DNA of 64,000 nucleotides, from positions 224,001 through 288,000 of the forward strand of contig CAVOYH010000005.1 in the NCBI GenBank assembly GCA_963700635.1. Reading direction: 5' to 3'. This DNA comes from an uncultured Bacteroidota bacterium (GTDB lineage: Bacteria > Bacteroidota > Ignavibacteria > UBA10030 > UBA6906). The notes beneath the pieces are model-generated. The model was not told the DNA's origin, searched no databases, and saw only the letters and a program-made list of their open reading frames with translations. This document shows, piece by piece, positions 34,815 through 51,065 of this stretch (within the stretch, counting starts at the first letter, position 1; every line of letters begins with the position of its first letter). The translations under genes were made by a program, and so were the position numbers.

Positions 34815-36326
34815 ATGCCCTCACATAACCTTACTGTCGCACGCAATGCCCTCTGGAATCATGCCGGCAAACTGACGGACTACATCGCCTGGTATTGCTC
34901 TTCCGTCCTGATTGCCCGGGGATTGGGTGTTGAACTGAACGGCGTTCTGGCAGGGATGGTGAGCGGAATCCACCTGTTGCTCGCCGTTAGTTCTGTTGGG
35001 CTGGAGGTCGCTATCAACAAGTTCCTACCCCAACTTGCCGGCGACGATATCGCGTCTCGGGCCAGGAAGATTATCCGCAAGGCAGCACTCGCCCGGATTC
35101 TCCTCTATCTGGGGGTTTCTGCTGTCGTTATTCTCGCGTCCCGATGGATGTGGGGGGATCCGCTGGGATTCTCACCGTCAATCCTTGTGACCCTCTTCTT
35201 TTACGGCCTGCTTCGCGGACTCGCCCCCCTTGCAGCGATGGTGCTCATCGCACAGTGGCACACTGACCGTGCAGCGGTTATCAGCGGTACGACTCGTCTT
35301 CTGGAACTCATGATTCTTGTCGTGCTCTATAACATGGGCATGTCTTTGGAGTCGGTCATTCTTGTTCTCACTGGCACATTTGCCATCCAGCTCCTGGGGT
35401 ATCTGATGGCGGCGAAGAAATACTGGATCGGGCAGGAAACGGCTGTCCCGATGCGCCCGATCTGGATTTTTGGGACAATATTCTGGGCTAACACAATGGT
35501 GGACTATTTCCTTGGACGTCAGGGTGATATCCTCTTCCTTACTCTCCTTAGTCCGTCTACCTCCTCGGCGGCACTATACGACATTTCGTATTCCATTCTG
35601 CAGGCCGGCGCGATGGTCATGACTATGGGTTTTTCCGGAGTAACGCTGGCAGCGTTTGCCCGGCTGGCGCTCGGGGCGCGGGATTCGATGGATCGATTCT
35701 ATGGGAGTCTTGTACGTATTACTTCTCTTCTCATGATCCCTGTGATGGGCTTTCTTTTTGTAGTGGCTTCTGATATCATACAGCTACTTTATACGGATGC
35801 GTACGCAGGTGCGTCCGTGGTGCTTCAGGTGATGCTTCTGTTTCGTATCACGTCACGTTTGTTTGCGGGGGGCGAAAACGCTGACTATCTCCTTGCACTG
35901 AACAAGGTGGGGGATGTCGTCTGGATTGGTGTGATCGGGGCGGGGGTCACGGTGGTAATGCACCTGATCCTCATCCCCCGTTTTGATGTTGTTGGAGCGG
36001 CTTGGGCCGCGGGCGTCGGAACATTGTCTGCAAATGCCTTGGGTATTCTTCGGGTCAGACAGTATGGGAGTGCGACAATCCAGTGGCGCACGTGGGGGAT
36101 TGTATTGGGGATCACGGGTGCAGCCGGTCTTGTGGCCCATTCCCTGCCTGTGCCCGGTGCGCAGCCCGCGGGAATACTTATCAGGGGGTTTGTATATCTG
36201 GGCCTTGTTTCCGGTTTGGCCATGGTTTTCAGACCACTGGAGTTTCATGATGCCAATACCGTCTCGTCAATTTCACCGAGATTACAGAGTGTAGTTGGAC
36301 GTCTTGCACGGAGCCTGAGAGAATGA
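34815..36326 (+). CDS. Oligosaccharide flippase (Wzx-like, MOP family)
   Basis: Many TM segments; IARGLG, HLILIPRFDVVGAAWA; first gene of glycosyltransferase cluster. Confidence 0.85.
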   Translation: MPSHNLTVARNALWNHAGKLTDYIAWYCSSVLIARGLGVELNGVLAGMVSGIHLLLAVSSVGLEVAINKFLPQLAGDDIASRARKIIRKAALARILLYLGVSAVVILASRWMWGDPLGFSPSILVTLFFYGLLRGLAPLAAMVLIAQWHTDRAAVISGTTRLLELMILVVLYNMGMSLESVILVLTGTFAIQLLGYLMAAKKYWIGQETAVPMRPIWIFGTIFWANTMVDYFLGRQGDILFLTLLSPSTSSAALYDISYSILQAGAMVMTMGFSGVTLAAFARLALGARDSMDRFYGSLVRITSLLMIPVMGFLFVVASDIIQLLYTDAYAGASVVLQVMLLFRITSRLFAGGENADYLLALNKVGDVVWIGVIGAGVTVVMHLILIPRFDVVGAAWAAGVGTLSANALGILRVRQYGSATIQWRTWGIVLGITGAAGLVAHSLPVPGAQPAGILIRGFVYLGLVSGLAMVFRPLEFHDANTVSSISPRLQSVVGRLARSLRE

Positions 36327-36342
36327 GGATGAGATCACCAGG

Positions 36343-37485
36343 ATGAAGATCGGCTACGCATATCTTGAGCATGGTATGACGGGGGGGATTGAGAGAGCGT
36401 CCCGTGATCTCGCCGGTGCCATGGCAGTAAGAGGTCACGAAGTGCACTACTATTGCGTTCGTTCGACCGCTCAACCTCCGTGCAATGTGGCCATACACCG
36501 GGTCTGGGCACCGGGACCCACTCATGCGGCGCAGCTTGCCTCATTCGCCCTTTGTGCACCGCGAATGTTGAGCAGAGGCGGATATGCGATCACTCACTCT
36601 CATGGTACGATGATCGGTGCAGATGTTGTCACGGCACACAGTTGTCACGAAGCAGGGCTCAAACGTATTCAACACAATAGCATGGGCGTCCGCGAAAGGA
36701 CAAAGAACTTTGGGATAGCAGATCAGATACGACTCTACATTGAGCGCGCCAATTTTGTAGGGCGACGCTACAAAGCAGTCCTTGCCGTCTCGCATGGCGT
36801 CCGGCAAGAGCTGATGGAGGTGTATGGAGTTCCGCGTTCAGACATTACGGTTGTCCCCAATGGGATCGATCTTTTGCGCTTTCCTCAGGAGGAAAGGGAG
36901 TATCACCGGAAGGCGGTCCGTGAGGCTCACGGGTTGCCGCATAACGCAATTATCCTTCTTTTTGTTGGAAACGAGTTCCACAGAAAAGGACTCTCGGTGC
37001 TGATTCACGCTCTGAAACTCGTCAACCGTCGGGACGTGTATGTATTCGTAGCGGGAGGAGACGATGCTGCTCCGTATGTCGAGCGTGCAGGAGTATTGGG
37101 TGTTGCTGATCGGGTGAAATTCCTCGGCAAAGTTGCGCGTGTTGAGCCTCTCTATCTCGCAGCGGACCAGTTTCTTTTGCCGTCGAGTTATGAGGCGTTC
37201 TCCGTTGCAATGCTTGAAGCCGCCGCCGCTGGACTCCCGCTTGTGCTGACACCCGTAAGCGGAACCGGCGAAGTTCTCGTCGATGGAACAACCGGGTTCT
37301 CTGTTCAACAGGAGCCCGGGTCACTTGCTCGCGCCATCCAGCAGATCATCGGGAGTGAATCTCTCGGTCGGTTGATGGGAGCCGCTGCGCGTCATGCCGC
37401 GCAGCGGTTTTCTTGGGATCGTATTGCGGAAGAAACAGCTGAGGTATATTCCTGCATTTGTCTACAACAGAAGAAGGTCTTGTGA
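36343..37485 (+). CDS. Glycosyltransferase family 4
   Basis: GGIER, VPNGID, RKGL, EAFSVAMLEA (EX7E), FSWD. Confidence 0.92.
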   Translation: MKIGYAYLEHGMTGGIERASRDLAGAMAVRGHEVHYYCVRSTAQPPCNVAIHRVWAPGPTHAAQLASFALCAPRMLSRGGYAITHSHGTMIGADVVTAHSCHEAGLKRIQHNSMGVRERTKNFGIADQIRLYIERANFVGRRYKAVLAVSHGVRQELMEVYGVPRSDITVVPNGIDLLRFPQEEREYHRKAVREAHGLPHNAIILLFVGNEFHRKGLSVLIHALKLVNRRDVYVFVAGGDDAAPYVERAGVLGVADRVKFLGKVARVEPLYLAADQFLLPSSYEAFSVAMLEAAAAGLPLVLTPVSGTGEVLVDGTTGFSVQQEPGSLARAIQQIIGSESLGRLMGAAARHAAQRFSWDRIAEETAEVYSCICLQQKKVL

Positions 37486-37504
37486 ACATCCCCTGCGAAG
37501 CGCT

Positions 37505-39043
37505 TTGAAGACCACCCCACATCGTCTCTACGCGATTTTCGGGACAGCGCTCGGGCTTGCCCAAATCACGATGGTCTGGTTTCATCGGTATCTCCCGATG
37601 TATGATTACCCCATATGGCTCTATGAAGTGAAATGTTTACATCGATTGGTTGAAGGGAATGAAGCCTATACGAGAGTGTTTGAGTGTGCCACGGGCCCTG
37701 TTCCCAATATGGCTTTTGTGGGAGGCGCTTCACTTCTCTCGTTGTTGTTCTCATTAGAAACTTCAGGCAAGATTCTCCTGAGTCTGTGTATCATCGGATT
37801 TCCGTGGTCATGGCTCTGGGTCGTCCGTCGTGTTGTTGGCGAGTACCGTGGATTGGAATACTTAGGATTTCCCCTGACGCTAAATCTCTTTTTCTGGGGT
37901 CGCACATCATACCTGCTCGCGTTGATAGTGTTTGTCGTTGCGGTTGGATGGCTCTACCTCCGCCGTAACGATTCAAACGTCCGTCTTCTTATCGCGCTGG
38001 CCGGCCTCTCCGTTGTCTTCTTTTTCCTGCATGGTGCGATTTTGGCACTATGGTGTCTGGTTGCATCCATACTCCTGTTTTCTTCACCTGGCCATCTTCG
38101 AGATAAGTTGAAAATGATTGGGGTTGCGCTTTCCCCTGCAGTTGTGCTGGCCCTCTGGCACCATCTGAGTGTCGGCGTGTCAACCACTGTCCAAAGCACG
38201 TGGGGTTTTGTCGCCCTTGCCCGAAATCTCTTGAAACCACTTATGCTTTTCGTGAAGAGTTATGAATTGCCTTCCATGGTGCCGCTCTCGCTATTGAACG
38301 GTCTGTGGCTTCTTCTGCTTTGCATAAGCATGGTGCCGGTGGGTCGTTGGCTGCTCTCACGAAATGGCGTTCGGCAGCCTCTTTTTCCGACGATTGTGTT
38401 GTGCTTGCTGGCCGCAGTGATCCTCCCTAATGATGCCTTTGGCATTTCGTCGCCGGGCGGATACTGCGTTCTCCCGGCTATCTTCTTGATGATAATATCC
38501 GGTCCTCGGGCGGAACCGAGTCGCTGGCGTGCGGTTCCGTTGCTCCTTGTAACGCTAGTGCTGACTGCATACACGTTTCACCATGTCCAGAGGGTGGATA
38601 CCTTAATGTCAGAATTTGTCGGTGACATTCGTCGAAATACAACATCTTCCAATCTTCACTTAACGATTAGGTATGATTGGCCTGCGGGATCAGGAGCGTT
38701 CGATGCTATCTCAGCTTCTGTGAATCCTTTATTCGGTGCGCACTACTATTCTCTGCTCGAAACGGATGGAATCGCAATAATTCATGGAACATCTCTCCTT
38801 CGTGTTAGATCGGATTCGCGGTGGCTACACCCCCCCTTCAGCGGGGCCACTCGTCAGAAATATCATGAGTCGGTACTCGACAATGTCGATTGGTGCCGTC
38901 GATTTGTATCAATTTCGGTAACCGGGAGCAATCCGGAGGCTGCAGAGACCGTTGCACTGCTGCAAACAATGAGATTCTCTACAGTGTGCGCAAAACCTTT
39001 ATGGACGATACTCGTCAATGCCCAGAGACCAGAAGAACAATGA
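37505..39043 (+). CDS. Polytopic membrane protein, possible GT-C glycosyltransferase/polymerase (start uncertain)
   Basis: About 10-12 TM segments, N-terminal loop YLPMYDYP, soluble C-terminal domain; inside glycan operon. Confidence 0.65.
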   Translation: MKTTPHRLYAIFGTALGLAQITMVWFHRYLPMYDYPIWLYEVKCLHRLVEGNEAYTRVFECATGPVPNMAFVGGASLLSLLFSLETSGKILLSLCIIGFPWSWLWVVRRVVGEYRGLEYLGFPLTLNLFFWGRTSYLLALIVFVVAVGWLYLRRNDSNVRLLIALAGLSVVFFFLHGAILALWCLVASILLFSSPGHLRDKLKMIGVALSPAVVLALWHHLSVGVSTTVQSTWGFVALARNLLKPLMLFVKSYELPSMVPLSLLNGLWLLLLCISMVPVGRWLLSRNGVRQPLFPTIVLCLLAAVILPNDAFGISSPGGYCVLPAIFLMIISGPRAEPSRWRAVPLLLVTLVLTAYTFHHVQRVDTLMSEFVGDIRRNTTSSNLHLTIRYDWPAGSGAFDAISASVNPLFGAHYYSLLETDGIAIIHGTSLLRVRSDSRWLHPPFSGATRQKYHESVLDNVDWCRRFVSISVTGSNPEAAETVALLQTMRFSTVCAKPLWTILVNAQRPEEQ

Positions 39044-40218
39044 CGTGTTTCCAATCAGAACCAAGGAACATACTGGTCGCCCAGACCATCTACCTGGGTG
39101 ACCTCCTCCTTACGCTCCCGCTTCTGACGGCCCTCCGTGCACGGTACCCATCTGCAGCCATCGACCTGCTTGTTCAGAAAGATTTGTCCGATCTGATATC
39201 CCTTCATCCGGCTGTACGGCGGGTCCTTTCGCTGGATAGGACAGGTGAGCACCGCGGAATTCGTGGACTCCTCCGGCTCGTCCGTGAGATCCGTGGCGAG
39301 AAGTATAATATGGCCATCGTTCTGCCCGGCTCTATACGAACAGCACTGCTCTGTCTGGTCTCAGGAGTCCCGAGGCGGATCGGATGGGATCCTGGCACGG
39401 CGCTCAGCGGGCAGATGAAGCGGGTGCGTTTTTCCGGGGCGATGCACACTCTCCCTTTTGTCCGGCCGATTCTCTGTTTCGAATTGCTCTACCGGGTGAG
39501 TCGCCCCCTCCGGAAACTCCTGCCTCCACTCTTTACGGACACGCTTGAGTTTCATCCAGGTGATCATGCATCCGCACGCTGGGTTGGCCTCGTACGTCGT
39601 TCAGATTCCTCAGTTTCCGAATCGATCCCCGCACCCTGGCTGCAAATTCCGGAATCCACCCGGACCAACATCGCGTCGAGGTATCCATCCTCAAGGAAGG
39701 GAGGTGTGGTGTTAGCACCCGGAGCGACGCAGCCCACCCGACGTTGGCCAGTGGATCACTTTGGATTGCTTGCCCGTAACCTGGCAGCCGATGGGTACTC
39801 CGTGTACATACTTGGTGGCGTAACTGATAGGGAGCTTTCCGAACAGATAGCCCGGATAGCGGGATCTCCGGGCGTACTGGCTGTGGCGGGGGAGCTCACG
39901 CCTCTCGAGTCAATGGAGCTCGTCCGGCAGAGCGTTGTTGTGGTCGCAAACGACTCGGCTCCTGTGCATATGGGATCGGCGATGGGGACCCCTACAGTTG
40001 CACTCTTCGGGCCGACTCTTCCTTCGTTCGGTTTTGCACCTCTCGCGCCGGGTAGCCGGATACTCGAACGCTTCGGATTGCCGTGCCGACCCTGTACTGT
40101 GTATGGAAGCAGCTCTTGTCCTGTGGGAACATTAGAGTGTTTGAAGTCCATTAGTGTTGACGAAGTTTACGCCGCCGTGGTCGCCATTTCCGAAACAACT
40201 CGTGCCCGTAGCACATGA
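39040..40218 (+). CDS. Glycosyltransferase family 9 (heptosyltransferase-like)
   Basis: LGDLLL, LAPGA, RRWP, NDSAPVH, LFGPT, CRPC. Confidence 0.92.
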   Translation: MTCFQSEPRNILVAQTIYLGDLLLTLPLLTALRARYPSAAIDLLVQKDLSDLISLHPAVRRVLSLDRTGEHRGIRGLLRLVREIRGEKYNMAIVLPGSIRTALLCLVSGVPRRIGWDPGTALSGQMKRVRFSGAMHTLPFVRPILCFELLYRVSRPLRKLLPPLFTDTLEFHPGDHASARWVGLVRRSDSSVSESIPAPWLQIPESTRTNIASRYPSSRKGGVVLAPGATQPTRRWPVDHFGLLARNLAADGYSVYILGGVTDRELSEQIARIAGSPGVLAVAGELTPLESMELVRQSVVVVANDSAPVHMGSAMGTPTVALFGPTLPSFGFAPLAPGSRILERFGLPCRPCTVYGSSSCPVGTLECLKSISVDEVYAAVVAISETTRARST

Positions 40219-41474
40219 CAAACAGCAAGATTCTCATCGTTGATCATCATGCGATCCACCTCCAGGGACGGGGCCTCTATCAAGAACTCGCGAAGACGGA
40301 AGGGTACACGCTGCGCGTGATTGCCCCGCGTGTGTGGAGGGAATACGGCCTCACAAACTACTTTGACGCCTTTGCCCATCTGCCCGGGAATGCAGAGACT
40401 CTCACAGGCAACAACGCGAGGACTCTGACTTCCGCCCATGGCACCCTAAGCGTAATCCCTTCGTCACTGCTCTTCGGGGGAAAGCCTCATCGGAACTTCT
40501 ATTGTCGTCTCGCGCGCGAATTGCGCACGTTTCGTCCCGACATCCTTCTTGTGAATTCGGAGCCGGAAGGGTTTCTGGCCTGCCAGGCGATATTTCTCTG
40601 TGGAATCTTTCGATTGGAAACCGAGGTTCTGTTTACCACCTGGCGCAATATGCGCTATGGCGATCCCGGTGTGCCCTTCCCGGTGAAATGGCCGTGGCTC
40701 AGCCGGTTGATCGAGAACTACGTTCTCCCCCGCGCCGCTCATGGTATTGCCCATTCACCGTCTGCAACCGGGATATTCCAATCGCGAAGATTTAACCGGA
40801 TGTCGTATATTCCTCCCTGGGTGGATGTGGAACGATTCAGCGGAGATTCTGGGAAACAGGGTGTCCATACCGGAGGATACGCTACCCCTGCTAAATTGCG
40901 CGTCGGCTTCGTCGGACGACTGGTTCGTGAGAAGGGGGTTGATCTTCTGGTGAAGGCGCTGCAAGACGCCGGATTCGCGTTCTCTCTCACCATCGTAGGC
41001 GACGGACCAGAAAAGGGGAGGCTTGAAAGATTAGTCCATGCCTCCGGGCTATCGGAACACTGTACCTTCCTTCTCCCTGTGCCGCAGGACGCTATTCCGG
41101 ATGTGATGCAAAGATTCGACGTGCTCGTTCTTCCATCCCGGGGACGTTCCGGATGGAAGGAACAATTCGGAAGAGTCCTTATCGAGGCAATGGCAAGCGG
41201 TGTGGTTGTGATTGGATCCGACAGCGGAGACATCCCGGAAGTTATTGGCGGGGCTGGATGTATTTTCAGAGAAGAAGATAGCGAAGTACTCCGGACGATT
41301 CTGCAGAGACTCGCCGGCGATGAAAGGCTGCGACAGACTTACAAAGAGGCGGGAATTCGCAGGGTTACCGATGAGTATTCATTGGCGGTGGCAGTGAATC
41401 GTTACCGTGAGCTCTTTGACACGTTGAAGTTCAAACGAGAAATCCGTACGATAGATGAAAGATCCTCGAAATAG
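40215..41474 (+). CDS. Glycosyltransferase family 4
   Basis: FVGRLVREKG, WKEQFGRVLIEAMA. Confidence 0.92.
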   Translation: MTNSKILIVDHHAIHLQGRGLYQELAKTEGYTLRVIAPRVWREYGLTNYFDAFAHLPGNAETLTGNNARTLTSAHGTLSVIPSSLLFGGKPHRNFYCRLARELRTFRPDILLVNSEPEGFLACQAIFLCGIFRLETEVLFTTWRNMRYGDPGVPFPVKWPWLSRLIENYVLPRAAHGIAHSPSATGIFQSRRFNRMSYIPPWVDVERFSGDSGKQGVHTGGYATPAKLRVGFVGRLVREKGVDLLVKALQDAGFAFSLTIVGDGPEKGRLERLVHASGLSEHCTFLLPVPQDAIPDVMQRFDVLVLPSRGRSGWKEQFGRVLIEAMASGVVVIGSDSGDIPEVIGGAGCIFREEDSEVLRTILQRLAGDERLRQTYKEAGIRRVTDEYSLAVAVNRYRELFDTLKFKREIRTIDERSSK

Positions 41475-41482
41475 AGTCAGGC

Positions 41483-42088
41483 ATGATGCTCACACGGCTC
41501 CTGATAGCTGGCCGCGCACTGGTCAATGGACCCCGCGACCAGACCCCGCTGGACCCCGGCGCGGTCAGGTGCATCCTGACCAGCGAAGTGACGCGGCTGG
41601 GTGATGTCCTGACAACAATTCCTGCACTCCGCCATCTCCGCTCAGCGTTTCCCGATGCCCGCATCGTCTGTGTGACAGACAGACGTTTTGTTTCGCTGCT
41701 GAAGGCGTGCAATATAGACGTCGAAGTGCTGGGAGTCTCTGCAACCGATACCATCGCCGGGTTATCCTCTGCCATCAGAACGGCCCGCCGGTACAAGCCC
41801 GATCTCGCACTCAGTCTCAGTCCGGCCAAACGGAACGCGGCCATTACTCTGGCATCAGGTGCACCGGCTGTGGCCGGATACTTCAGGCCGCTCAAGCAAG
41901 CGGCGCAACATCTGTTCCGGTCCGATGTTGAGGCGCAGGGGTTCGCACTCCCACATTCATCAGCATACGAATCGGAACATCTGGAAAATCGCGCATTGCA
42001 TGTTGTGGGTGCACTCACCGGTTACCCGGAGGCACCTGGACCGGAAAATCTCCCTGTCAGCGGGTCCCCGGCAACAGGCCCTCGATAG
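41483..42088 (+). CDS. Glycosyltransferase family 9, N-terminal part (frameshift near 42066)
   Basis: RLGDVLTTIPA, FPDARI; continues in +1 frame. Confidence 0.8.
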   Translation: MMLTRLLIAGRALVNGPRDQTPLDPGAVRCILTSEVTRLGDVLTTIPALRHLRSAFPDARIVCVTDRRFVSLLKACNIDVEVLGVSATDTIAGLSSAIRTARRYKPDLALSLSPAKRNAAITLASGAPAVAGYFRPLKQAAQHLFRSDVEAQGFALPHSSAYESEHLENRALHVVGALTGYPEAPGPENLPVSGSPATGPR

Positions 42089-42641
42089 ACTCCGCAAACA
42101 TTTGCCCGGTCTGGACATACCGTTCGTCGTGATCCATCCGTTTGCAGCGTGGCGCTACCGCGAATGGTCCGTTGAGAATTATGTTGCCCTGGGGAATATG
42201 GTGCTGGAAAGGTATGGACTTCCGGTGGTCTTCCTGGGTGAACACTCAGAGGCGTCTGCGCTCAGATCCATTGCCAGCCGCCTGCAGGAGAACAAGCGTG
42301 TCTCGGTATTTCCCTCCGATGATCTCCTCCTGTCAGCCGTGTTGCTTGAGAAGGCGACTCTGTTTGTAGGGAGTGATTCCGGGCCATTACATCTTGCCGC
42401 ACTTCTGGGCACGCCGGTGGTCGGGTTGTTTGGCCCATCCACTCCGGCCCTTACAGCCCCCGTTGTGCCTCACGGTGCATTCTTGTACGACGCAGTCCCG
42501 TGCTCTCCGTGCGCTCAAACGACGTGCGTTCAACCTGAAGATCACTGCATGCAGCGCCTTACCCCGGAGGCAGTCCTCGCAGCCATTGACCAGCTCCTCC
42601 AAACACCTCAAGCACACCGGATGGCCACACATGCAAAATGA
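41859..42641 (+). CDS. Glycosyltransferase family 9, C-terminal part (coding from about 42070)
   Basis: VIHPFA, REWS, GSDSGPLHLAA, LFGPS, CSPC. Confidence 0.8.
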   Translation: MHRLWPDTSGRSSKRRNICSGPMLRRRGSHSHIHQHTNRNIWKIAHCMLWVHSPVTRRHLDRKISLSAGPRQQALDRLRKHLPGLDIPFVVIHPFAAWRYREWSVENYVALGNMVLERYGLPVVFLGEHSEASALRSIASRLQENKRVSVFPSDDLLLSAVLLEKATLFVGSDSGPLHLAALLGTPVVGLFGPSTPALTAPVVPHGAFLYDAVPCSPCAQTTCVQPEDHCMQRLTPEAVLAAIDQLLQTPQAHRMATHAK

Positions 42642-43377
42642 CGGCGTGCTGGGAGTGCGTATAGATCCCTGCGAGAGTGATGGGCTTCTTAATGCAATCA
42701 CCAGCAGCATCAAGGACCGGCGCAGCGACGTGTATGCGTATGCGAATACCCATGCGCTGAATCTTGCCTGGTCGATGCCGGAATTCCGGGCATTTCTGAA
42801 TTCAGCCCACACGGTCTACTGCGATGGGGAAGGGGTCCGGCTCGCCGCCCGGTTACTCGGCTTCCGTCTTCCGCGCCGGATCGCCCTGACCTATTTCTTC
42901 TGGGATATCTGCAGGGAGGCCGAGCGATTGGGATACAGTATGTTTCTTCTCGGCTCACAAGAGGAACAACTGCAGGATGCCCGGAGTCGAATCCTTGCAC
43001 GCCATCCGGGGCTGCGCATTGCCGGATCACACCACGGCTTCTTCCCGAAAACCGGCCCCGAATCTGACGCCGTTGTCCGGACTATCCACTCGGCGAAACC
43101 GGACATTCTGTTTGTCGGATTTGGAATGCCCCTCCAGGAAAAGTGGATCTCAGCAAACCGCGAACGGCTCACCGCCTCCGCAATTCTTCCGTGCGGCTCC
43201 ATGATTGAGTATGCCAGCGGCCGGCGGACACTTGCTCCTGCATGGATGAGCAACCATGGTCTGGAGTGGGTCTACAGGCTTTTTCAGGAGCCGGGACGTC
43301 TGTGGAAACGTTACCTGCTGGGTAACCCCCTGTTTCTGTTACGGGTGATACGGCAACGATGGAGCAGAACACAATGA
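42631..43377 (+). CDS. WecB/TagA/CpsF (WecG-like) glycosyltransferase
   Basis: YCDGEG, HHGFF, VGFGMPLQEKW, APAW, LEWVYRL, RLWKRY. Confidence 0.93.
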   Translation: MQNDGVLGVRIDPCESDGLLNAITSSIKDRRSDVYAYANTHALNLAWSMPEFRAFLNSAHTVYCDGEGVRLAARLLGFRLPRRIALTYFFWDICREAERLGYSMFLLGSQEEQLQDARSRILARHPGLRIAGSHHGFFPKTGPESDAVVRTIHSAKPDILFVGFGMPLQEKWISANRERLTASAILPCGSMIEYASGRRTLAPAWMSNHGLEWVYRLFQEPGRLWKRYLLGNPLFLLRVIRQRWSRTQ

Positions 43378-46300
43378 TGAGGCGGATCGTGCGGAACATC
43401 TCTGTCGTAGCACTGCTGCTTTTTGCGGGAGGATACTGTGCGGAAGCGCTTCCAGCCAACGCGGAACCTTTCCGGCTCGTCTCGCAAACTCCAACTTCCT
43501 GGACGTATGACTACACACCTTCGCCCCTGTTACCTCAGACCATCATCATCGATGGGTTGCCGCACCATTTGTACGGAGGGAACGAAACAGCTGAGAACGC
43601 AGGCCAACCCCTTCTTCCCATAGAAGTCCTTACGCTCGGCGTGCCGTTTGAGGGAACGGTAACGGCAGAACTGACGGATGTATCCTATGCCGACGAACAG
43701 GGTGTGCTCGTTGCCCCTTCACCGACATACACACGGACCGAGGAGGGGGAGGCCCTCCCTTCGTACACGAAGATTGCGGATGTGTATGCACAGGATCGGT
43801 TCTTTCCCTCTGCGGTTCTGGGAATTGAAGAACCGTACACAGTCCGGCATGCGCGGCTGACCACAATTCGTCTCTCGCCCATTCAATACAATCCCACGAC
43901 CAGGGTGCTCAGACGCCTGTCCCGGGCCACGCTGGTGGTACGCCTCAGGACGGTACCCTTGCTCAAGGCGGCTCCCGGTCTGCAGGTAACCCGTGATCCG
44001 CACTTCGAAGCACAGTACCGATCCATGATGGTCAATTACACGGATGCCATGGAGTGGCGCTACAGGGACGCATCCACTGCGAAGACAGACTCATCCGGGA
44101 ACTGGTTCACACCCGGCGCATCGTACATACGCCTCCCGATCGCACATGACGGGTGGTATCGTATCACCCTGAGCGACCTTTCCGCTCTCGGGGTCGCGCC
44201 TCCGGCCCTGGATACTTCCACGGTGAAGCTCTTCTTCAAGGGGCAGCAGGTCCCCTTGCAGATCGACCCGGACAGGTCCCTGCACTTCTACGGGATGCGC
44301 AAACATGGAGATTCCACATATCTCGACTATTACACCGACACAAGCGCCTACTGGCTCGCATGGCAGAATCCCGGGGCGGGCATCCGTTATCAACAAGTTC
44401 CGAATCTGACCCTCGCGCCGGTTGATACCCAGTTCGCTTCCCGCCATCTTGTCCATTGTGAAGAGAACAAGGATTATTATGAAGGAACCGGTGACGCCGA
44501 GGTGACGCTCAACGGTCTGGCGCCCGGCGAGGGGTGGGCCTGGGAGTATTTTTATCCGAACACCACTGCAAATTTTGATTGTACTCTGGACAATGTCTGG
44601 ACTGCCGGAGATTCGACTGCTACCATTCGTGTGCGGCTGTTCAGTACCACCCGGTATTATAACACTCCGGATCATATTGCCCGGTTCTGGATCAACGATT
44701 CGCTTCTTGGAGAAAAGAGTTTTCAGGGGCGCACCCAGGGGCTGTTTCTCGTCAGTTTCCCTTCGCGGTGGCTGAAAGAAGGTGCCAACAGTCTCAGGAT
44801 TCAGTCCATACCCACGGCAAGCTCTCCCAATCAATTCTACCTCGATTGGTTTGAAATAGAGTACGTGCGCTCACACGTTGCCGTGAATGGTCACGCTGTC
44901 TGTTCTCTTTCTCCGCGCGCGGGTGAGCCTGAGGCCAGGATCTCGGTCCGGGGTTTTCCCTCGCCAGCAATTCGTGTTCTGGACCTGACGACAGGGCGGG
45001 CGATTCAAACCGTGACGGTAACGGCCGATGGCGGAGGAACATATCGTGCGGTTTTTGATGATACCCTGACGGTCGCACGGCGGTATCTTGTCGTCGCTGA
45101 CACATCAGCCATGCAGGTCACGAATGCAAGCCGGAAGACGTTCGCCGGATTACGCCAGCATGGCACCGGGGCTGATTACATCATCATCACGCATGGGCTT
45201 TTCCGGCAGGCGGCCAACACGCTCGCAGCGCACCGCCAGGCACGCAACGGGGTGCGTGCTGTGGTCGTGGATGTCCAGGATATCTATGATGAATTTAATT
45301 ACGGCCATCTGAGCAGCGAATGTATCAAGGACTTCCTCCGCCATACGTATACAACCTGGCCTGCGCCCGCTCCGGCGTATGTGCTCATGTTCGGGGATGC
45401 CTGCTGGGACTTTCGACGGAATATGGCCTCGAGTGTTATGACGAACTATGTCCCGGCCTACGGAGTCCCGGCCGGGGACAACTGGTATGTGTGTTTTGAT
45501 TCCACGCGTCCCTTCCTGCCCTCCATACAGATTGGCCGGCTCCCGGTACAAAACCCCGCGCAGGCTGCTGCTGTCGCGGATAAGGTGATAGGATATGATT
45601 CGTACACACTTGCCGACTGGAACAAGAACTTTCTGTTTATCTCGGGCGGGACCACGCCGACCGAAAAGATCACGTTCGACGGTCAGAGTAATGCATTGAT
45701 TCAGGATATCGTTCTGCCTGCGCCGATAGGCGGAACACCATTCCGGGTGTACAAAACCACAGCCAACACGATTGACGGGGAGAACAAGCAGCTCCTGCGC
45801 AGTCTGGTCAAAGACGGACTTGTGTTTATGAATTTCCTCGGTCATTCGGGAGGACGAATCTGGGGAGTGGACATCGGCACGCCCGCCGATCTGGAGAACA
45901 CCACCGGGATGCTTCCGTTTGTAACATCCGTGAGCTGTAACGTCGCGGCTTTCGCGGAACCATCCAGTAACGTGCTCTCGGAAGATTTTGTTCTGGCCGA
46001 TCATCGGGGTGCTGTGGGGATGTGGGCATCATCATCGGTGGGGTATGCGAACATCGGGGCAAGTCTGGTGCGCAACTTCCTCGAGAATGTCCGTAATGAC
46101 ACTGCCAGAGTGCTTGGCAAGATCACCACAGGGGCGCTGATCAAACTCTGGCAAACGCGCGGGTCGGACTATGTTACTTTAGCGTCAGTCAATTTGAACC
46201 CTCTGCTGGGTGATCCGCTCACAGCGCTTGCCATCCCGCGAAAGCCCGATCTGGCGATCACCCCGCAGGACCTGGCATTAACTCTGCAGACACCCACGCC

Positions 46301-46535
46301 GATGGATACGGCGGTCCATGTGCGTATGGTTGCGCACAACTACGGACTCGTCCCGTCTGACAGCGTCGCCCTTTCCATGACCGATGCTTCCGCGAGTGGA
46401 GTTGATTCCGTGGTGCAGGTCCCTGCGTATACGGCCGACTCTTCACCGCGACACTGTTCTGATACCATGGCGCGGAACATCGGTACGAGGTTCGCATCTG
46501 CTGCATGTCACTCTGGATCCGGCGCTGACGATTGA
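43359..46535 (+). CDS. C25 family cysteine peptidase (gingipain/PorU-like), N-terminal part
   Basis: Signal peptide, propeptide, DYIIIT, DIYDEFNYG, GRLPV, catalytic FLGHSG and VSCNV, LLGDP; frameshift near 46417. Confidence 0.9.
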   Translation: MEQNTMMRRIVRNISVVALLLFAGGYCAEALPANAEPFRLVSQTPTSWTYDYTPSPLLPQTIIIDGLPHHLYGGNETAENAGQPLLPIEVLTLGVPFEGTVTAELTDVSYADEQGVLVAPSPTYTRTEEGEALPSYTKIADVYAQDRFFPSAVLGIEEPYTVRHARLTTIRLSPIQYNPTTRVLRRLSRATLVVRLRTVPLLKAAPGLQVTRDPHFEAQYRSMMVNYTDAMEWRYRDASTAKTDSSGNWFTPGASYIRLPIAHDGWYRITLSDLSALGVAPPALDTSTVKLFFKGQQVPLQIDPDRSLHFYGMRKHGDSTYLDYYTDTSAYWLAWQNPGAGIRYQQVPNLTLAPVDTQFASRHLVHCEENKDYYEGTGDAEVTLNGLAPGEGWAWEYFYPNTTANFDCTLDNVWTAGDSTATIRVRLFSTTRYYNTPDHIARFWINDSLLGEKSFQGRTQGLFLVSFPSRWLKEGANSLRIQSIPTASSPNQFYLDWFEIEYVRSHVAVNGHAVCSLSPRAGEPEARISVRGFPSPAIRVLDLTTGRAIQTVTVTADGGGTYRAVFDDTLTVARRYLVVADTSAMQVTNASRKTFAGLRQHGTGADYIIITHGLFRQAANTLAAHRQARNGVRAVVVDVQDIYDEFNYGHLSSECIKDFLRHTYTTWPAPAPAYVLMFGDACWDFRRNMASSVMTNYVPAYGVPAGDNWYVCFDSTRPFLPSIQIGRLPVQNPAQAAAVADKVIGYDSYTLADWNKNFLFISGGTTPTEKITFDGQSNALIQDIVLPAPIGGTPFRVYKTTANTIDGENKQLLRSLVKDGLVFMNFLGHSGGRIWGVDIGTPADLENTTGMLPFVTSVSCNVAAFAEPSSNVLSEDFVLADHRGAVGMWASSSVGYANIGASLVRNFLENVRNDTARVLGKITTGALIKLWQTRGSDYVTLASVNLNPLLGDPLTALAIPRKPDLAITPQDLALTLQTPTPMDTAVHVRMVAHNYGLVPSDSVALSMTDASASGVDSVVQVPAYTADSSPRHCSDTMARNIGTRFASAACHSGSGADD

Positions 46536-48783
46536 TGAAGTATCAAAGACAAACAACAGCGCCACGCTGGCGGCGTATGTTTCCGCGCACACGATTCTGG
46601 CTGTGCGTCCGCTCATTAATCAGGCCATCGCCCCCGGTGCGGTGGAACTGGTGGTCAGTACGCCCGTGTCGGGGGATACCGGCGTCACAGCGTACGAGTT
46701 TGAGCTTGATACGTCGATGGGATTCATCGCCGGATCTGCCATCACGTCGGGCCTGTTGCAGCCTGGTCCCGTCGGGGGGCGATGGACTACGCCGGTGTTA
46801 TCCACGCCGGGAGTCTATTTCTGGCGGGCACGCACGAGGGTGGATACGCTGGTCGGAAAATGGGTGGTGGGGCGGTTTTTGATCGATGCAGGGGCTCCGC
46901 CCGGGCCGATGGTTTTGTGGCGTGAAAAAACCGGAACACAGTTTTCAGCCGGACTCCCCGCCGGAACCGGCGCTACGGATTCGGGTGTAACACTTCGTGC
47001 GTCTCCCTCGTTGACTGTGGGTGCCCGATCTCTCGGGTACCGTGCAGATGCAAACAAGGATTTCTACAGTACCATCTGGGTGAACGAGCAGACCGTGACG
47101 GGATTCTGGTGGGAACACGGGAGCAGCTTTATGGTGGTACGATTGAACGCGTTCTCGGGCGCATTCAATTTTAAGGCTTTTAATGTTGCCGGCAATGCGG
47201 CTCTCGCCGATTCGATGAAGAATTTTCTGGATGCTACGAACAATGGGGACTATCTCCTCATCACCGTAATTTTTGACGGATACTCGAATGTCTCGGAAGC
47301 TCTGCGTACGAGTTTACGATCACTCGGAAGCACGCGGATTGATTCTGTGCGCCCGGGCCATTCCTGGATGCTCATTGCCAGAAAGCAGGCCGCACCCCCG
47401 TATTTTGCCCTTGAACAGTGGAGTCCGGCCGGAGTCGCAGAGGACAGTACGACGATTCCGAACAATTACGCGGTGGGAACCGGAACGTACGTTTCGGTCC
47501 GAAATCCATTTCCTTCTCTTTTCGAAAAACTACGATGGACGCCTCAGCTCACCGCAGGGGTTCATACCATGCGTGCTGCCGTGCTGGGGGTGAGGTCCGA
47601 CGGTTCAGCTGACACGCTTGCCCGTGTTGAATCTAATGAACCTGAACAGGATCTCGCCGGACTCACCCCGTTGTTTGCTGATTCGGCATACACTCATGTC
47701 GGGATTTCGGCAACACTCACGACGACTGACGCGCTTACCACGCCGGTTCTGAGGGAGTGGTCGATGGGCTTCATTCCTCCGGCAGATCTCGCGGTTAGCG
47801 GGCGGACGGTTGGGGAAAGGGCCCTGATCCTGGCAAAAGGTACCGGGATTCAGATTCCGCTCACGATACACAACATCGGATATCGAACTTGCGACAGCGT
47901 GCGGATTCGCATAGATCTTAAAAAACCTGACGGAACCGGGCAACCGCTCTCCCATGCCACCGCCGGAAGTATCCCGGTCGACAGCAACCGAACCATAATG
48001 TTGTCCGTTCCGACAGATGGACTCTCGGGCTTCAACATCCTCAACGTCATCGTGTCACCTCCGGCCGGCATCCGGGACCTCCTTGCGGAGAACAATCTGG
48101 CCAGCGTGGTGGTCAATGTCACATCGGTGGATGAACCTCTTGCGGCCACAGTCCGTGTGTACGCGGACGGCGTACCGTTGATGGATGGGGATTACGTGTC
48201 CAGCCGGCCGCAGTTCTTGATCCAGCTCGCAGAGCTGACAGGCATCAGGCAGGGGCAGGAGAGGGTACAGCTTTATGCCGATAACCGGCTTGTAAGTTCA
48301 GAAGGCGGGACGGTCAATGGCACGACCTCGCAGACGGGAGCCGCGGCAGACGGTTTTGTATTTTCGCCCCAGCTCAGCGATGGACCGCATGAGCTTGCCG
48401 TGCGTCTGTATCGCTGGAACGGGACGTCCGGGATAGACTCTGTCGAGCACCGGCTGGTTGTTACTGTCGTGAGTGACACGCGGATCCTGCGTGTGTACAA
48501 CTATCCCAACCCCTTCTCTACATCCACAGAGTTTACCTTCGTCCTCACCGGAGCGCGTGCGCCGGAGGACTTGACGATCAGGATCTTCACGATAGCCGGC
48601 CGTCGTATTCAGGAGTTACGTGTCCCGCACACTGACCTCAAAGTGGGATTTAACCGAATTCACTGGGACGGGCGTGACAGTGACGGTGACGAGATAGCGA
48701 ATGGATACTATCTGTATCAGATCCAGGTAAAGGGAGAGGGTAAGGTGGAGACTGCTGTGGAGAAGCTGGCCAAAGTGAGGTGA
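46384..48783 (+). CDS. C25 peptidase C-terminal part: CARDB-like, ILEI-like and T9SS sorting domains
   Basis: DEVSKTNN and AENN CARDB-like ends; NYPNPF, IFTIAGRRI, WDGRDSDGDEIANGYYLY tail. Confidence 0.85.
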   Translation: MLPRVELIPWCRSLRIRPTLHRDTVLIPWRGTSVRGSHLLHVTLDPALTIDEVSKTNNSATLAAYVSAHTILAVRPLINQAIAPGAVELVVSTPVSGDTGVTAYEFELDTSMGFIAGSAITSGLLQPGPVGGRWTTPVLSTPGVYFWRARTRVDTLVGKWVVGRFLIDAGAPPGPMVLWREKTGTQFSAGLPAGTGATDSGVTLRASPSLTVGARSLGYRADANKDFYSTIWVNEQTVTGFWWEHGSSFMVVRLNAFSGAFNFKAFNVAGNAALADSMKNFLDATNNGDYLLITVIFDGYSNVSEALRTSLRSLGSTRIDSVRPGHSWMLIARKQAAPPYFALEQWSPAGVAEDSTTIPNNYAVGTGTYVSVRNPFPSLFEKLRWTPQLTAGVHTMRAAVLGVRSDGSADTLARVESNEPEQDLAGLTPLFADSAYTHVGISATLTTTDALTTPVLREWSMGFIPPADLAVSGRTVGERALILAKGTGIQIPLTIHNIGYRTCDSVRIRIDLKKPDGTGQPLSHATAGSIPVDSNRTIMLSVPTDGLSGFNILNVIVSPPAGIRDLLAENNLASVVVNVTSVDEPLAATVRVYADGVPLMDGDYVSSRPQFLIQLAELTGIRQGQERVQLYADNRLVSSEGGTVNGTTSQTGAAADGFVFSPQLSDGPHELAVRLYRWNGTSGIDSVEHRLVVTVVSDTRILRVYNYPNPFSTSTEFTFVLTGARAPEDLTIRIFTIAGRRIQELRVPHTDLKVGFNRIHWDGRDSDGDEIANGYYLYQIQVKGEGKVETAVEKLAKVR

Positions 48784-48807
48784 AACAGGATTACGCAGAG
48801 AAAACGA

Positions 48808-48837
48808 AGAGAGAAGAATCCGTGGATTCTTCTCTCT
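48808..48837. terminator. Hairpin between convergent genes
   Basis: AGAGAGAAGAATC-cgtg-GATTCTTCTCTCT. Confidence 0.7.
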
Positions 48838-48876
48838 GTCGAATGGAGCTACACCCCGCCGCATGTGTCAAGCGTG

Positions 48877-49320
48877 TTACGCTGCATCCTTCCCGAACCC
48901 CGACTCCATCTCTTCCTTTTTCAGGAGTTTCCAGATCGTCCGTTCTGACATTGAGATGTTATAACGTTTCTCGAGATAGGCGCGCAGACGGCGCTGTCCG
49001 TAGCCGGTCTGTTCACGCGCTTCTCTGAGAATCCGGATGGAGCTTTCCGGCGTTGCGCGCGGGAATCGATGGGGACGCCGCGACCGATCAACAAGCGCCT
49101 TGGTGTTCCCCTTGTCCTGCTGATACCGTTTAAACCACTTATAAAAAGTCTTACGGCTTATGCCGAACTTCCGGCACACCGCCTGCACGTTTTTTGTTTC
49201 CTCGTAGCACAGCATCCAGGCCAACCGCGGATGCAGCGACCCGCCCAGGGGTGAGTCTTCCGGAGGATATGCAGCTCTCCCCGCATGTTCGTCCGCACGT
49301 TTTTCGTTATGTTCTTCCAT
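48877..49320 (-). CDS. Helix-turn-helix protein resembling the IS481 transposase N-terminus, no catalytic core
   Basis: VCRKFGISRKTFYKWFKRY, LVDRSRRPH, YGQRRL, SERTIWKLL; AGGAG SD. Confidence 0.8.
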   Translation of the reverse strand: MEEHNEKRADEHAGRAAYPPEDSPLGGSLHPRLAWMLCYEETKNVQAVCRKFGISRKTFYKWFKRYQQDKGNTKALVDRSRRPHRFPRATPESSIRILREAREQTGYGQRRLRAYLEKRYNISMSERTIWKLLKKEEMESGFGKDAA

Positions 49321-49340
49321 TCGCTCTCCTGTACCCTCCG

Positions 49341-51065
49341 TTATTTCACGTACACCATTTTTCCGGTTCCGCTCGACTGTCCCGCCTGAAGGCGATAATA
49401 GTAGACGCCGCTTGCTGTCACGCCTGTTTGTTCCGTCGTGAAAAGAGCCAGATGTGTGCCGGCTTCCTGATACGCGTCGATGAGAATGCCTATTTCCTGG
49501 CCGATTTCATTGTACACCGTCAACCGCACCATGCCCGCCGTTGGCAGCGAATAGCGGATTGTCGTGGAGGGGTTAAACGGATTGGGATAGTTTTGTTCAA
49601 GGCTAAACTGATGGGGAAATGAACCCTCGGTAACAGTCGTGACATTTGAAGGAAGTTCCACCAGGACTGCATCGGAGAAATGTTCGCTCCCGTCCAGATC
49701 CACCTGGCGCAGCCGTATGTAGATGCATCCCGAAATCCTGTCACTGCACACCCAGCCAAAAACATACGCGTGCTGTTCGAGTGTCGTCCCATGCCCCGCA
49801 ATGAACCCCCCGGGGATGTCTTCGAAGATACCGTTATCGGCGTTCTTCATCTGGACAAAGAACCCGTAGTTGTTCAACTCGCTGAGAGTTGTCCACGAAA
49901 GCTGGATCTGTGAACTCCTCGTGTTGTATGACCCTTCAAATGAAGCCAGTTGGACCGGGAGCAGCCCGTCGACCAATGTGATCGTGGTCTTGGGGTCGCC
50001 GATCACGACATCCATCCAGGAGACATAACGGGATGCCATAAAATAACTTTCCGCCAGATTGTAGCCCGACACATAACGGTCGAACAACACGGCGGAGTTT
50101 GCCATGGAGCTTGCATAGGGTTCGTACACGTAACCTTTAACCCCGCTCACCCCTTCACGGACCAGGTCGGCGACAAGAGACTGGCCATAGGACGGCGGGT
50201 CTTCGAAGGAGCGGCCTGAAGTGGAGACGTACGTTTCGGCGAGCGCACCCCTGGCCCACGAATTGCCGGGCATCGCATATTGAGAGAACTGATCCGCACA
50301 GCGGTCATTGCTCCCCCAGCTCACATACCCCACAACTTCATGGCGCATCGTGACGTATACAGAATCGGTGTTCAGCTCAACGGTTTTTCCCCGGGCGATG
50401 AGTCCTGCACAGGCCTGGGAGAGGTAATCATTAAGATAGGGAGCCGTTGTGTTCCATGAGGGATCCTGATCGAATACAAACCGTGACAACGAGTTCACGC
50501 GGGTTTCCGGTCCACTCCGATCGATGAGGTCGAGCACCTCCTGCGTGGAATATCCGTCAAGACGTGTCACAAGGTACATGTTATAGGCCGCGCGTGTAAA
50601 CTGTGCTGTCCTGGCGTAGTATGATGAGTACGGTCTCCCGCTTCCGCCGATAAGGTGGGCATTGGAACTCAGAATCAGCATGAGTTCACTTTCCACGGAC
50701 GACGAAGGTGAATTTAGAGAAAAGGTGTCGCCCCGGTTGACTTTCAGCGGTACGCCCTTGGTGGTGACAAGGTAGTTGATCGTGTTCACAAGGTTATTTG
50801 CCTGGAGGTACGATTCGATCTGACCGCGCAGGGATTGGAATTCGGCATCATCGATTTCTTCGTTTTGCGATACATTGACATAGACCAGATTCGCGGCCGG
50901 TATGTCGCGTTTTGCCTTGAAATAATCACCGATCGTCCGGGATGCCTGGCTGTTTGTATTCACGATCACCGCCACATCACTGTAATCGGTGGCAGCATAT
51001 GATACAGTGCAGGGACCAAACACCAGTCCGACCAGAGCGAGTGCGCACGGTGTCGCGCGCCTCAT
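49341..51065 (-). CDS. TIGR03790 family protein with T9SS type A sorting domain
   Basis: DVAVIVN, YLVTTKGVP, YLVTRLDG, GVKGYVYEP, GYNLAES, SWMDVVIGDP; LPVQLASF spacer; QNYPNPFNPST tail; GGAGG SD. Confidence 0.85.
   Translation of the reverse strand: MRRATPCALALVGLVFGPCTVSYAATDYSDVAVIVNTNSQASRTIGDYFKAKRDIPAANLVYVNVSQNEEIDDAEFQSLRGQIESYLQANNLVNTINYLVTTKGVPLKVNRGDTFSLNSPSSSVESELMLILSSNAHLIGGSGRPYSSYYARTAQFTRAAYNMYLVTRLDGYSTQEVLDLIDRSGPETRVNSLSRFVFDQDPSWNTTAPYLNDYLSQACAGLIARGKTVELNTDSVYVTMRHEVVGYVSWGSNDRCADQFSQYAMPGNSWARGALAETYVSTSGRSFEDPPSYGQSLVADLVREGVSGVKGYVYEPYASSMANSAVLFDRYVSGYNLAESYFMASRYVSWMDVVIGDPKTTITLVDGLLPVQLASFEGSYNTRSSQIQLSWTTLSELNNYGFFVQMKNADNGIFEDIPGGFIAGHGTTLEQHAYVFGWVCSDRISGCIYIRLRQVDLDGSEHFSDAVLVELPSNVTTVTEGSFPHQFSLEQNYPNPFNPSTTIRYSLPTAGMVRLTVYNEIGQEIGILIDAYQEAGTHLALFTTEQTGVTASGVYYYRLQAGQSSGTGKMVYVK

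Follow-up and report, generated by a model that had tools for sequence, protein, structure and literature searches.

A supernumerary PorU-type paralog encoded with glycan-assembly genes: a candidate second route for anchoring type IX secretion cargo

A 64-kb stretch of DNA (hereafter named the window) from an uncultured Ignavibacteria-type bacterium, whose genome of about 4.2 Mb is 97% complete, contains on its forward strand a 14-kb run of glycan-assembly genes (34815-48783) that ends in the gene of a peptidase family C25 protein. This protein is a paralog of PorU, the enzyme that anchors type IX secretion system (T9SS) cargo. The paralog and the WecG and GT9 genes next to it, which code for a WecG/TagA/CpsF-family enzyme (glycosyltransferase family GT26) and for glycosyltransferases (GT) of family 9, are very probably functionally coupled. 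We propose, with a probability of about one half, that the locus encodes a second T9SS anchoring route, made of glycan-assembly enzymes and a supernumerary PorU-type paralog. A first-pass annotation of the window had read the locus as making a dedicated glycan and its own transpeptidase. The linkage to glycan genes, the extra enzyme and its lectin-type domain were all borne out by the present analysis; the sortase (transpeptidase) activity of the paralog and the identity of the glycan acceptor are what we infer, and the outer genes of the operon turned out to be variable.

The locus bears on two questions on T9SS cargo, namely how it is sorted between release and covalent anchoring, and which glycan serves as anchor outside Porphyromonas and Tannerella. 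According to PMC13086638, PorU joins cargo to a sugar within a dedicated linker, which four glycosyltransferases assemble on undecaprenyl pyrophosphate; PorZ is reported to deliver anionic lipopolysaccharide (A-LPS) to PorU (PMC8545088). A paralog with its own lectin domain, gained and lost together with one glycosyltransferase gene, is a testable candidate for a second anchoring route, and it names the genes that would make the acceptor. New here are this gain-and-loss test, the controls on PorU and core PorU2 loci, the structural assignment of the lectin domain, and a new clade. The results also give a genomic context to PorU2, a so far unexplained family of NCBI.

Inheritance and identity of the C25 paralog

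Forty relatives were searched for the paralog, and WecG matches of at least 40% identity were counted as orthologs. The paralog is present in 24 of these genomes. A WecG ortholog was found in 20 of the 24 carriers, plus one partial copy at a contig end, always beside the paralog, and in none of the 16 non-carriers, where the best WecG matches reached at most 35% identity. The three carriers left without a WecG ortholog are one genome that is 61% complete and two in which the contig ends at the gene. Twenty loci were fetched from relatives, 18 of them with at least 1 kb upstream of the C25 gene: WecG lies within 1 kb in 16/18 and within 3 kb in 17/18, and the gene of the second GT9 enzyme of the run (GT9b) adjoins WecG in nearly all the fetched loci. 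The C25 and glycan genes are kept as a unit across at least nine families of the order. The conserved core is GT9b-WecG-C25, and the flippase, a first GT4 enzyme (GT4a), a membrane protein and a first GT9 enzyme (GT9a), which complete the operon together with GT4b, vary among relatives. Among these genes, WecG shows the tightest co-inheritance with the C25 paralog. Synteny across Ignavibacteria-like genomes, named as a check in the first reading of the window, supports the linkage to glycan genes.

We also collected 80 named loci from public metagenome-assembled genomes (MAGs), 58 of which could be assessed. In the paralog's own clade, WecG lies within 1 kb in 18/21 loci; of the other three, one locus is rearranged and two are second copies within tandem arrays. 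In a clade from Ignavibacteriaceae and Melioribacter, it lies within 1 kb in 12/15 loci, and is divergently oriented in 10 of these 12; the WecG-paralog pairing has therefore survived a rearrangement. No WecG gene is present within 1 kb in the remaining assessable loci (0/22; KSB1-type, Chloroflexota-type and others). As controls, 31 canonical PorU loci gave no tblastn match to any glycan gene of the window, and 40 core PorU2 loci gave none either (30 genomes with 1.5-kb flanks, 10 of these genomes at about 20 kb). In the MAG labelled Melioribacter roseus, the locus (L107) comprises Glf, GT2, two GT9, WecG in divergent orientation, the paralog, and further an MsbA-like exporter and two GT4. 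Melioribacter roseus is a cultured species, and knock-outs as well as mass spectrometry of C-terminal glycopeptides may be possible in a genome that has the same gene pair. As a separate observation, some relatives (L054, L058, L062 and L063) have the long C25 paralog in two or three copies in tandem, with only one GT9b-WecG pair before them.

The canonical anchoring genes are encoded elsewhere in the genome. The true porU (973.3 bits) lies directly before porV (255.9 bits) on contig C2, so that a separate porU-porV pair does exist, and porZ (330.5 bits) is found on contig C3; the C25 gene of the window is thus an extra paralog. Its product belongs to peptidase family C25, as its match to the Pfam domain lies far above the gathering cut-off (Table 1). 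The best-scoring family is PorU2 (NF052324), with 338.8 bits against a cut-off of 450, which is not passed. The PorU model (NF033707) gave 210.7 bits on the N-terminal piece of the protein and 75.0 bits on the C-terminal piece, against a cut-off of 420, also not passed. Scores against PorU2 are of 330-352 bits for the orthologs of the paralog, 407-454 bits for the Melioribacter-type clade and 626-1038 bits for core members. The catalytic His and Cys, which had been read as intact from codons at 45843 and 45936, are exactly at these positions: His829 and Cys860 align to the GH and TC motifs of Porphyromonas gingivalis PorU (6za2; phmmer against the PDB), and both are invariant in 19/19 orthologs. 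In the same PDB search, PorU 6za2 matched over the catalytic region, whereas a gingipain matched only for the pro-domain (4ief_A, E 1.7e-12), and no sequence match was found to gingipain catalytic domains.

Trees were built on the region homologous to residues 240-1010, after dropping rows shorter than 600 residues. FastTree was run on 128 of the 130 rows, and a quick IQ-TREE on 47 hand-picked rows, with an arbitrary root placed on Chloroflexota-type homologs. In both trees, canonical PorU forms a clade of its own with a support of 100, and the paralog falls outside. In the IQ-TREE, the paralog lies within a clade of long paralogs (Shimodaira-Hasegawa-like approximate likelihood-ratio test, 99) that includes proteins over the PorU2 cut-off; its own group (support 100) is sister to the pair formed by the Ignavibacteriaceae/Melioribacter-type group and core PorU2 (support 97). 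FastTree agrees on the placement of the paralog and PorU2, with a weak support of 77-88. Judged by sequence, the C25 protein is not PorU, and is a member of a long-paralog clade that includes PorU2. The phylogeny keeps it apart from PorU, and in the PDB search its sequence matches a gingipain in the pro-domain only.

Side branches of these trees deserve a mention. MAGs labelled Chloroflexota or Anaerolineae (L100, L103, L106, L111, L113, L118, L119, L121, L125 and L126) encode proteins of 1000-1526 aa, most of about 1000-1090 aa, with a C25 pro-domain and catalytic domain, which are sister to canonical PorU in the tree. The C-terminal half of the paralog finds no match in any of these ten loci, and in the two proteins scanned with Pfam (L106 and L113) neither an ILEI domain nor a T9SS tail was matched. 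To our knowledge, Chloroflexota and Anaerolineae are not known for a T9SS.

The family to which the paralog is closest already has a curated hidden Markov model name, PorU2. A literature search found, among the matches listed, no paper on PorU2 or on its linkage to glycans, subscription journals lying outside its coverage. A search for PorU-like, paralogous or second PorU proteins found no PorU paralog named, as judged by titles and the opening lines of abstracts. Core PorU2 genes follow a PorV2 barrel gene (NF052325; 442-562 bits) in 5/5 loci tested, often beside tyrS. We considered a paralog-specific PorV2 barrel in the present genome. The best PorV2-like gene (199 bits) is on contig C3, unlinked to the paralog, and equivalents are found in 35/40 relatives, with or without the paralog, so that this candidate was rejected; the 199-bit gene may be a PorQ ortholog. 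Among eight genomes of family f20 searched for PorU, four that are 100% complete (G041, G047, G077 and G081) have no match to the PorU model at E≤1e-100. Each of the four encodes a PorU2 protein above the family cut-off, and two of them encode it twice. PorU2 may be the sole PorU-type enzyme of these bacteria, and the absence of a PorU match fits a role of PorU2-type enzymes as working sortases.

The lectin-type domain and the proposed route

We next consider the C-terminal half of the paralog, in which the first-pass annotation had recognized an ILEI-like domain and a T9SS tail; both are supported by family models (Table 1). An AlphaFold model of the C-terminal 789 residues, made from a 23-row alignment (mean predicted local distance difference test score, pLDDT, of 84.6), was compared with 48,161 PDB representatives using VIA-align. 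The PANDER/ILEI domain of the model aligns with the stem domain of POMGnT1 (5ggf_A) with a Z of 20.5 and a root-mean-square deviation (rmsd) of 1.9 Å over 145 residues, at 23% identity. The next matches are FAM3B (Z 18.8), FAM3A (Z 18.2) and TMEM2 (Z 14.7). Foldseek, queried with the whole C-terminal model, returned only generic matches to proteins with multiple immunoglobulin-like (Ig-like) domains. The isolated POMGnT1 stem domain has been solved in complex with a ligand (5ggj_A), and carbohydrate binding by this domain is known. The predicted lectin fold points to direct recognition of a glycan by the paralog. The Pfam ILEI domain was detected in 9/10 long paralogs outside core PorU2, and in 1/4 core PorU2 proteins, that one under the cut-off; neither the PorU of this genome nor the two Chloroflexota homologs tested gave a match. 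At the end of the protein, model residues 574-789 align with residues 937-1157 of PorU (6za2_B) with a Z of 12.0. As the rmsd is of 10.1 Å over 187 residues, this match is a loose, multi-domain one.

Comparison with known systems places the paralog close to PorU in some respects and apart from it in others. Like PorU of P. gingivalis (6ZA2, NF033707), which works with PorV, PorZ and PorQ, it has the C25 dyad, a pro-domain-like region, and C-terminal domains with a retained sorting domain. However, it is about 400 aa longer, with a PANDER lectin domain inserted and additional Ig-like domains, and its gene stands in a glycan operon instead of beside porV. With PorU2 it shares, besides the clade, a similar length (about 1660-1730 aa in core PorU2). 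Core PorU2 genes, however, stand behind PorV2 and without glycan genes (0/10 loci), whereas those of the paralog's clade have WecG and GT9 and no PorV2 partner, and the ILEI domain is weak or undetected in core PorU2. Gingipains RgpB and Kgp are alike in belonging to family C25, in the homologous pro-domain and in the T9SS tail, while the domain order and C-terminus of the paralog are PorU-like. The lectin domain shares its fold with the POMGnT1 stem, FAM3/PANDER and the 'GG' domain of TMEM2; here it belongs to a bacterial surface enzyme.

A parallel in concept is the pathway by which P. gingivalis makes A-LPS and its A-linking saccharide (through WbaP, GtfC, GtfF, VimF, the Wbp/Vim linking sugar and a Wzx-type flippase, and with the carrier PorZ). 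There, a dedicated oligosaccharide that a few glycosyltransferases make on a lipid carrier is flipped outward to be the acceptor of a C25 sortase, according to PMC13086638. The present locus differs in that its glycosyltransferases are encoded in one operon with the enzyme and belong to the families GT26 (WecG) and GT9, in that no genes for an amine-bearing linking sugar were seen in it, and in that the lectin domain forms part of the enzyme instead of coming with PorZ as a separate protein.

The route that we propose would work as follows. At the cytoplasmic face, GT9b, WecG and the variable GT4 enzymes would assemble a lipid-linked oligosaccharide. The flippase would export it, and it would end on an outer-membrane glycolipid, either linked to lipopolysaccharide (LPS) or on another anchor. 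The paralog would itself be exported by the T9SS and be located at the surface, where its lectin domain would hold the glycan and fill for it the job that the separate PorZ does for PorU. Of the approximately 120 T9SS cargo proteins, a subset would then lose the C-terminal sorting domain to cleavage by Cys860 and His829, which would join the newly formed C-terminus to the glycan. This route would run alongside the canonical one of PorU, PorV and PorZ, whose genes are located elsewhere. In a more detailed version, Ignavibacteria-type bacteria would have two separate anchoring routes, and the paralog would be a self-contained 'lectin-sortase' that binds, through the PANDER domain, a glycolipid of the type of N-acetylmannosamine or its uronic acid, ManNAc(A), synthesized by the co-inherited WecG/GT9 module. 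It would ligate a selected subset of cargo to this glycolipid and so form a distinct surface layer of protein and glycan, and the neighbouring TIGR03790-family protein, of gingipain fold but lacking the Cys/His pair, would be a dedicated substrate or non-catalytic helper. We regard this version as speculative, with the odds clearly against it as a whole.

Rival readings and the frame changes

Several points weigh against a second anchoring route. In the family scans of the operon, no PorV-type barrel gene was found adjacent to the paralog, unlike PorU and core PorU2, and the protein stays under the curated cut-offs of PorU and PorU2 alike. The scans also revealed no amino-sugar or aminoacyl linking-sugar gene in the locus; such a sugar would provide the amine that transpeptidation requires. 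The usual substrate of GT9 enzymes is the lipid A core, and that of WecG is sugars linked to undecaprenyl pyrophosphate, so that it is not evident that all these enzymes serve one pathway. The co-occurrence counts overstate independence, because the relatives are kin and six of the named loci are the same contigs as loci with G handles. Finally, the genes of the paralog and of GT9b are both frame-shifted in the assembly, which may reflect a route inactive in this strain or two indel errors.

The frame changes bear on the suggestion that the system is decaying in this strain, both changes being genuine and the operon a pseudogene cluster of recent origin. The C25 protein had been described as one of roughly 1800 aa; this length is reached only by reading through two frames. 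Matches by tblastn of two orthologs place a single clean frame change near 46414-46420, with 51-68% identity to the orthologs on either side and no internal stops. The 17 orthologs with complete open reading frames (ORFs) in the fetched loci are all single ORFs of 1762-2373 aa, mostly 1760-1900 aa; three further ortholog rows have an ORF that is truncated at a contig end or likewise split. In GT9b, the orthologs of which are single ORFs of 357-420 aa, the tblastn matches switch frame near 42045-42075, beside G3 and C4 runs. In the other 42 ORFs of the window, Pfam matches run over the full length of the models and no other gene looks split, although this was not a systematic test. Decay would fit the fact that the 14-kb operon contains both of the frame changes found across the 64 kb of the window, that the C25 site lies outside any homopolymer, and that the paralog is dispensable, being absent from 16/40 relatives including G003 of the same genus. 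On the other hand, each gene has one frame change and zero stop codons in the correct frames, the identity to orthologs is maintained on both sides of the C25 site, and the GT9b site is at a typical place for indel errors. Isolated splits of the same kind are also found in assemblies of relatives, in TIGR03790 of G005 (G005:C21:81350-82313) and in the C25 paralog of G008 (L050). The available reads left both sites uncovered: the only public run found to share sequence did so for 7% of sampled words, and its contigs leave bins 46340-46586 and 41894-42140 uncovered. We take decay as a possibility to be reckoned with, but doubt it. Elsewhere in the window, two small overlapping ORFs of the same strand without Pfam match (56500-57054 and 57036-57524, both on the reverse strand) could be either a third split gene or two small genes.

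Other readings accept the operon as functional and give the C25 protein a different role. It could be a gingipain-like surface protease or processing enzyme, itself a T9SS cargo held on its own cell's glycan by the lectin domain, in which case the linkage to glycan genes would reflect retention or trimming. Its N-terminal region is indeed homologous to the gingipain pro-domain (PF08126 and 4ief_A), it ends in a T9SS tail, it lacks a PorV-type partner next to it, and its scores are under both cut-offs. However, this genome's canonical PorU also has such a pro-domain-like region (PF08126, 48.6 bits), so that this domain does not separate proteases from sortases. Moreover, the catalytic region matches PorU by sequence and not the gingipain catalytic domains, the last 215 residues or so match PorU's own C-terminal domains, and the protein belongs to the same clade as PorU2, the only PorU-type gene in four sampled genomes. 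Together, these observations make a protease unlikely. Still less probable, in our opinion, is that the operon is an LPS-core, O-antigen or protein-glycosylation locus, where the C25 gene would be present through clustering and co-regulation of envelope genes, the glycan not being the substrate of the enzyme and perhaps decorating it or other surface proteins. The variable outer part of the operon would agree with this, as would GT9a, which passes the heptosyltransferase II cut-off, the Melioribacter-type locus with its MsbA-like ATP-binding cassette (ABC) exporter, Glf, GT2 and GT4s, and the membrane protein if it is a GT-C enzyme that glycosylates periplasmic lipids or proteins, which is a lead only. 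Yet the rest of the genome contains at least 10 further GT9 genes and 2 further WecG genes, and only the adjacent WecG tracks the paralog (20 plus one partial of 24 carriers, against 0/16). The pairing is moreover kept in a second deep clade with opposite orientation, and the lectin domain suggests direct glycan recognition.

The remaining reading, which stems from the first-pass annotation, makes the TIGR03790 protein integral and the whole locus a T9SS counterpart of the exosortase/PEP-CTERM systems for extracellular polysaccharide (EPS). The gene is single-copy in the genome and converges on the C25 gene, although a 147-aa ORF with helix-turn-helix (HTH) domains, overlooked at first, lies between the two. 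Among the 40 relatives, TIGR03790 is found in 13: within 13 kb of the paralog in five (G001, G005, G012, G020 and G035), on other contigs in five, and without a detected paralog in three (G003, 100% complete; G002, 93%; G023, 70%), whereas at least 14 carriers of the paralog have no TIGR03790. On these phyletic grounds, TIGR03790 was rejected as an obligate partner, and it is at most an occasional companion of the paralog. More than 4600 proteins in the protein database combine TIGR03790 with a T9SS tail, which makes it a common type of cargo. No match to exosortase (PF09721) was found in this 97%-complete genome, so that the parallel is one of analogy only, a sorting enzyme encoded with polysaccharide genes in both cases, and involves no homology. 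A predicted structure of the TIGR03790 protein (mean pLDDT 82.2) would leave room for a protein-processing partner: residues 29-367 align with the catalytic domain of RgpB (Z 20.7, rmsd 3.5 Å over 286 residues), and the model also matches Kgp (Z 19.6) and separase (Z 12.6). However, an alignment of 30 family members has no conserved Cys, and the single fairly common His (77%, position 255) is an Arg in the protein of the window. By its model, TIGR03790 looks like a protein of gingipain or clan-CD fold with a different chemistry or none, and the assignment of this putative fold to an uncharacterised family is a side result of this work. An integral role of TIGR03790 thus appears very improbable.

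Layout of the locus and neighbouring genes

Gene calls within the window were defined from the ORF list together with Pfam and NCBIfam scans (Table 1). The order flippase, GT4, membrane protein, GT9, GT4, GT9, WecG/TagA and C25 is as first annotated. The junctions of less than 20 nt claimed along with it are verified for five, namely gaps of 16 nt between flippase and GT4a and of 8 nt between GT4b and GT9b, and overlaps of 4 nt between GT9a and GT4b, of 11 nt between GT9b and WecG and of 19 nt between WecG and C25; the two around the membrane gene are not fixed, the starts of this gene and of GT9a being uncertain. The WecG/TagA product stays under the equivalog cut-offs for TarA, EpsA and WecG. 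For the membrane protein, an Atlas feature search gave as nearest named clusters some with PMT_2 in 14-51% of their members (score 0.96, 156-168 common features), and it is possibly a GT-C/PMT_2-like glycosyltransferase, which we mention as a lead only.

Table 1. Features of the locus, with positions in the window unless a relative's locus is named.
Feature	Position	Strand	Evidence and remarks
Class I methyltransferase-like gene, divergent from operon	33446..34414	-	PF13578 Methyltransf_24, 47.6 bits; no NCBIfam match
Sigma-70-like promoter match, upstream of flippase start	34755..34782	+	10/12 hexamer matches and TG motif; consensus match only
MOP/Wzx-type polysaccharide flippase	34815..36326 (ATG 34815)	+	PF13440 Polysacc_synt_3, 34.2 bits (cut-off 23)
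GT4a glycosyltransferase	36343..37485	+	PF00534, 107 bits; PF13439, 79.5 bits
Multi-pass membrane protein	37394 or 37571 (start uncertain) to 39043	+	no Pfam or NCBIfam match
GT9a, heptosyltransferase-like	ORF 38890..40218, likely start about 39040	+	PF01075, 107.9 bits; TIGR02195 heptosyltransferase II, 152.7 bits (cut-off 134.6)
GT4b glycosyltransferase	40215..41474	+	PF00534, 106.2 bits; best NCBIfam match HpsO, 160 bits, under its cut-off
GT9b glycosyltransferase, two frames	41483..42641 (41483-42088 + 41859-42641)	+	PF01075, 86.9 bits on second piece
WecG/TagA/CpsF-family (GT26)	42631..43377	+	PF03808, 187.4 bits (cut-off 27.4); TIGR00696, 115.1 bits (cut-off 69)
C25 paralog (PorU2-like), about 1800 aa if read through	43359..48783 (43359-46535 + 46384-48783)	+	PF01364, 232.7 bits (gathering cut-off 23); PF08126, 60.2 bits
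Catalytic dyad of C25 paralog	45843..45938	+	His829 codon 45843-45845; Cys860 codon 45936-45938
PANDER/ILEI lectin-type domain of C25 paralog	47005..47469 (model residues 198-352)	+	PF15711, 37.8 bits
PorU-like C-terminal domains of C25 paralog, including T9SS type A sorting domain	48133..48780 (model residues 574-789)	+	TIGR04183, 24.0 bits (cut-off 23); NF033707 positions 879-1093, 75 bits
13-bp palindromic hairpin, terminator-like, between convergent genes	48808..48837	.	pattern scan only
Small HTH protein, 147 aa	48877..49320	-	PF13518 and PF13565; NF033577, 81 bits (cut-off 224)
TIGR03790-family protein, fibronectin type III (FN3)-like domain and T9SS tail	49341..51098	-	TIGR03790, 175.5 bits (cut-off 67); TIGR04183, 26.2 bits (cut-off 23)
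HTH homologs in relatives' loci	L032:3572-4042, L033:1712-2179, L035:15093-15644, L037:15040-15483, L040:4696-5142, L047:16615-17094, L051:16868-17347		

It is uncertain whether the methyltransferase-like gene is part of the system. Promoter-type sites of the quality of the one upstream of the flippase are not enriched in the region, with 6 observed against 9.6 expected from shuffles.

In about 120 ORFs of the genome, the C-terminus is a T9SS sorting domain that resembles the tail of the TIGR03790 protein, which makes a very large predicted T9SS secretome for 4.2 Mb. On the TIGR03790 protein itself, the Pfam tail model PF18962 gives 20.2 bits, under its cut-off of 27. The module of 200 aa formed by its FN3-like domain and tail was considered as a special mark of cargo and rejected, as it also occurs in ten other proteins encoded at dispersed sites of the genome, and the tail alone in about 120. 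Besides TIGR03790 genes, T9SS cargo genes are found at most 5 kb downstream of the paralog in 9/26 relatives' loci (33 of 50 ORFs scanned). With approximately one tail-bearing gene per 35 kb, and genomes that are related, this enrichment is weak.

The small HTH protein resembles the N-terminus of IS481/IS630 transposases, and we considered that its ORF might be a decaying insertion sequence. This was rejected, since homologous small ORFs (147-183 aa) lie downstream, at most 5 kb from the 3' end of the C25 gene, in seven relatives' loci, from several genera, with or without TIGR03790. Given this conserved position, the ORF is probably not a remnant of an insertion sequence, and it may code for a domesticated DNA-binding protein.

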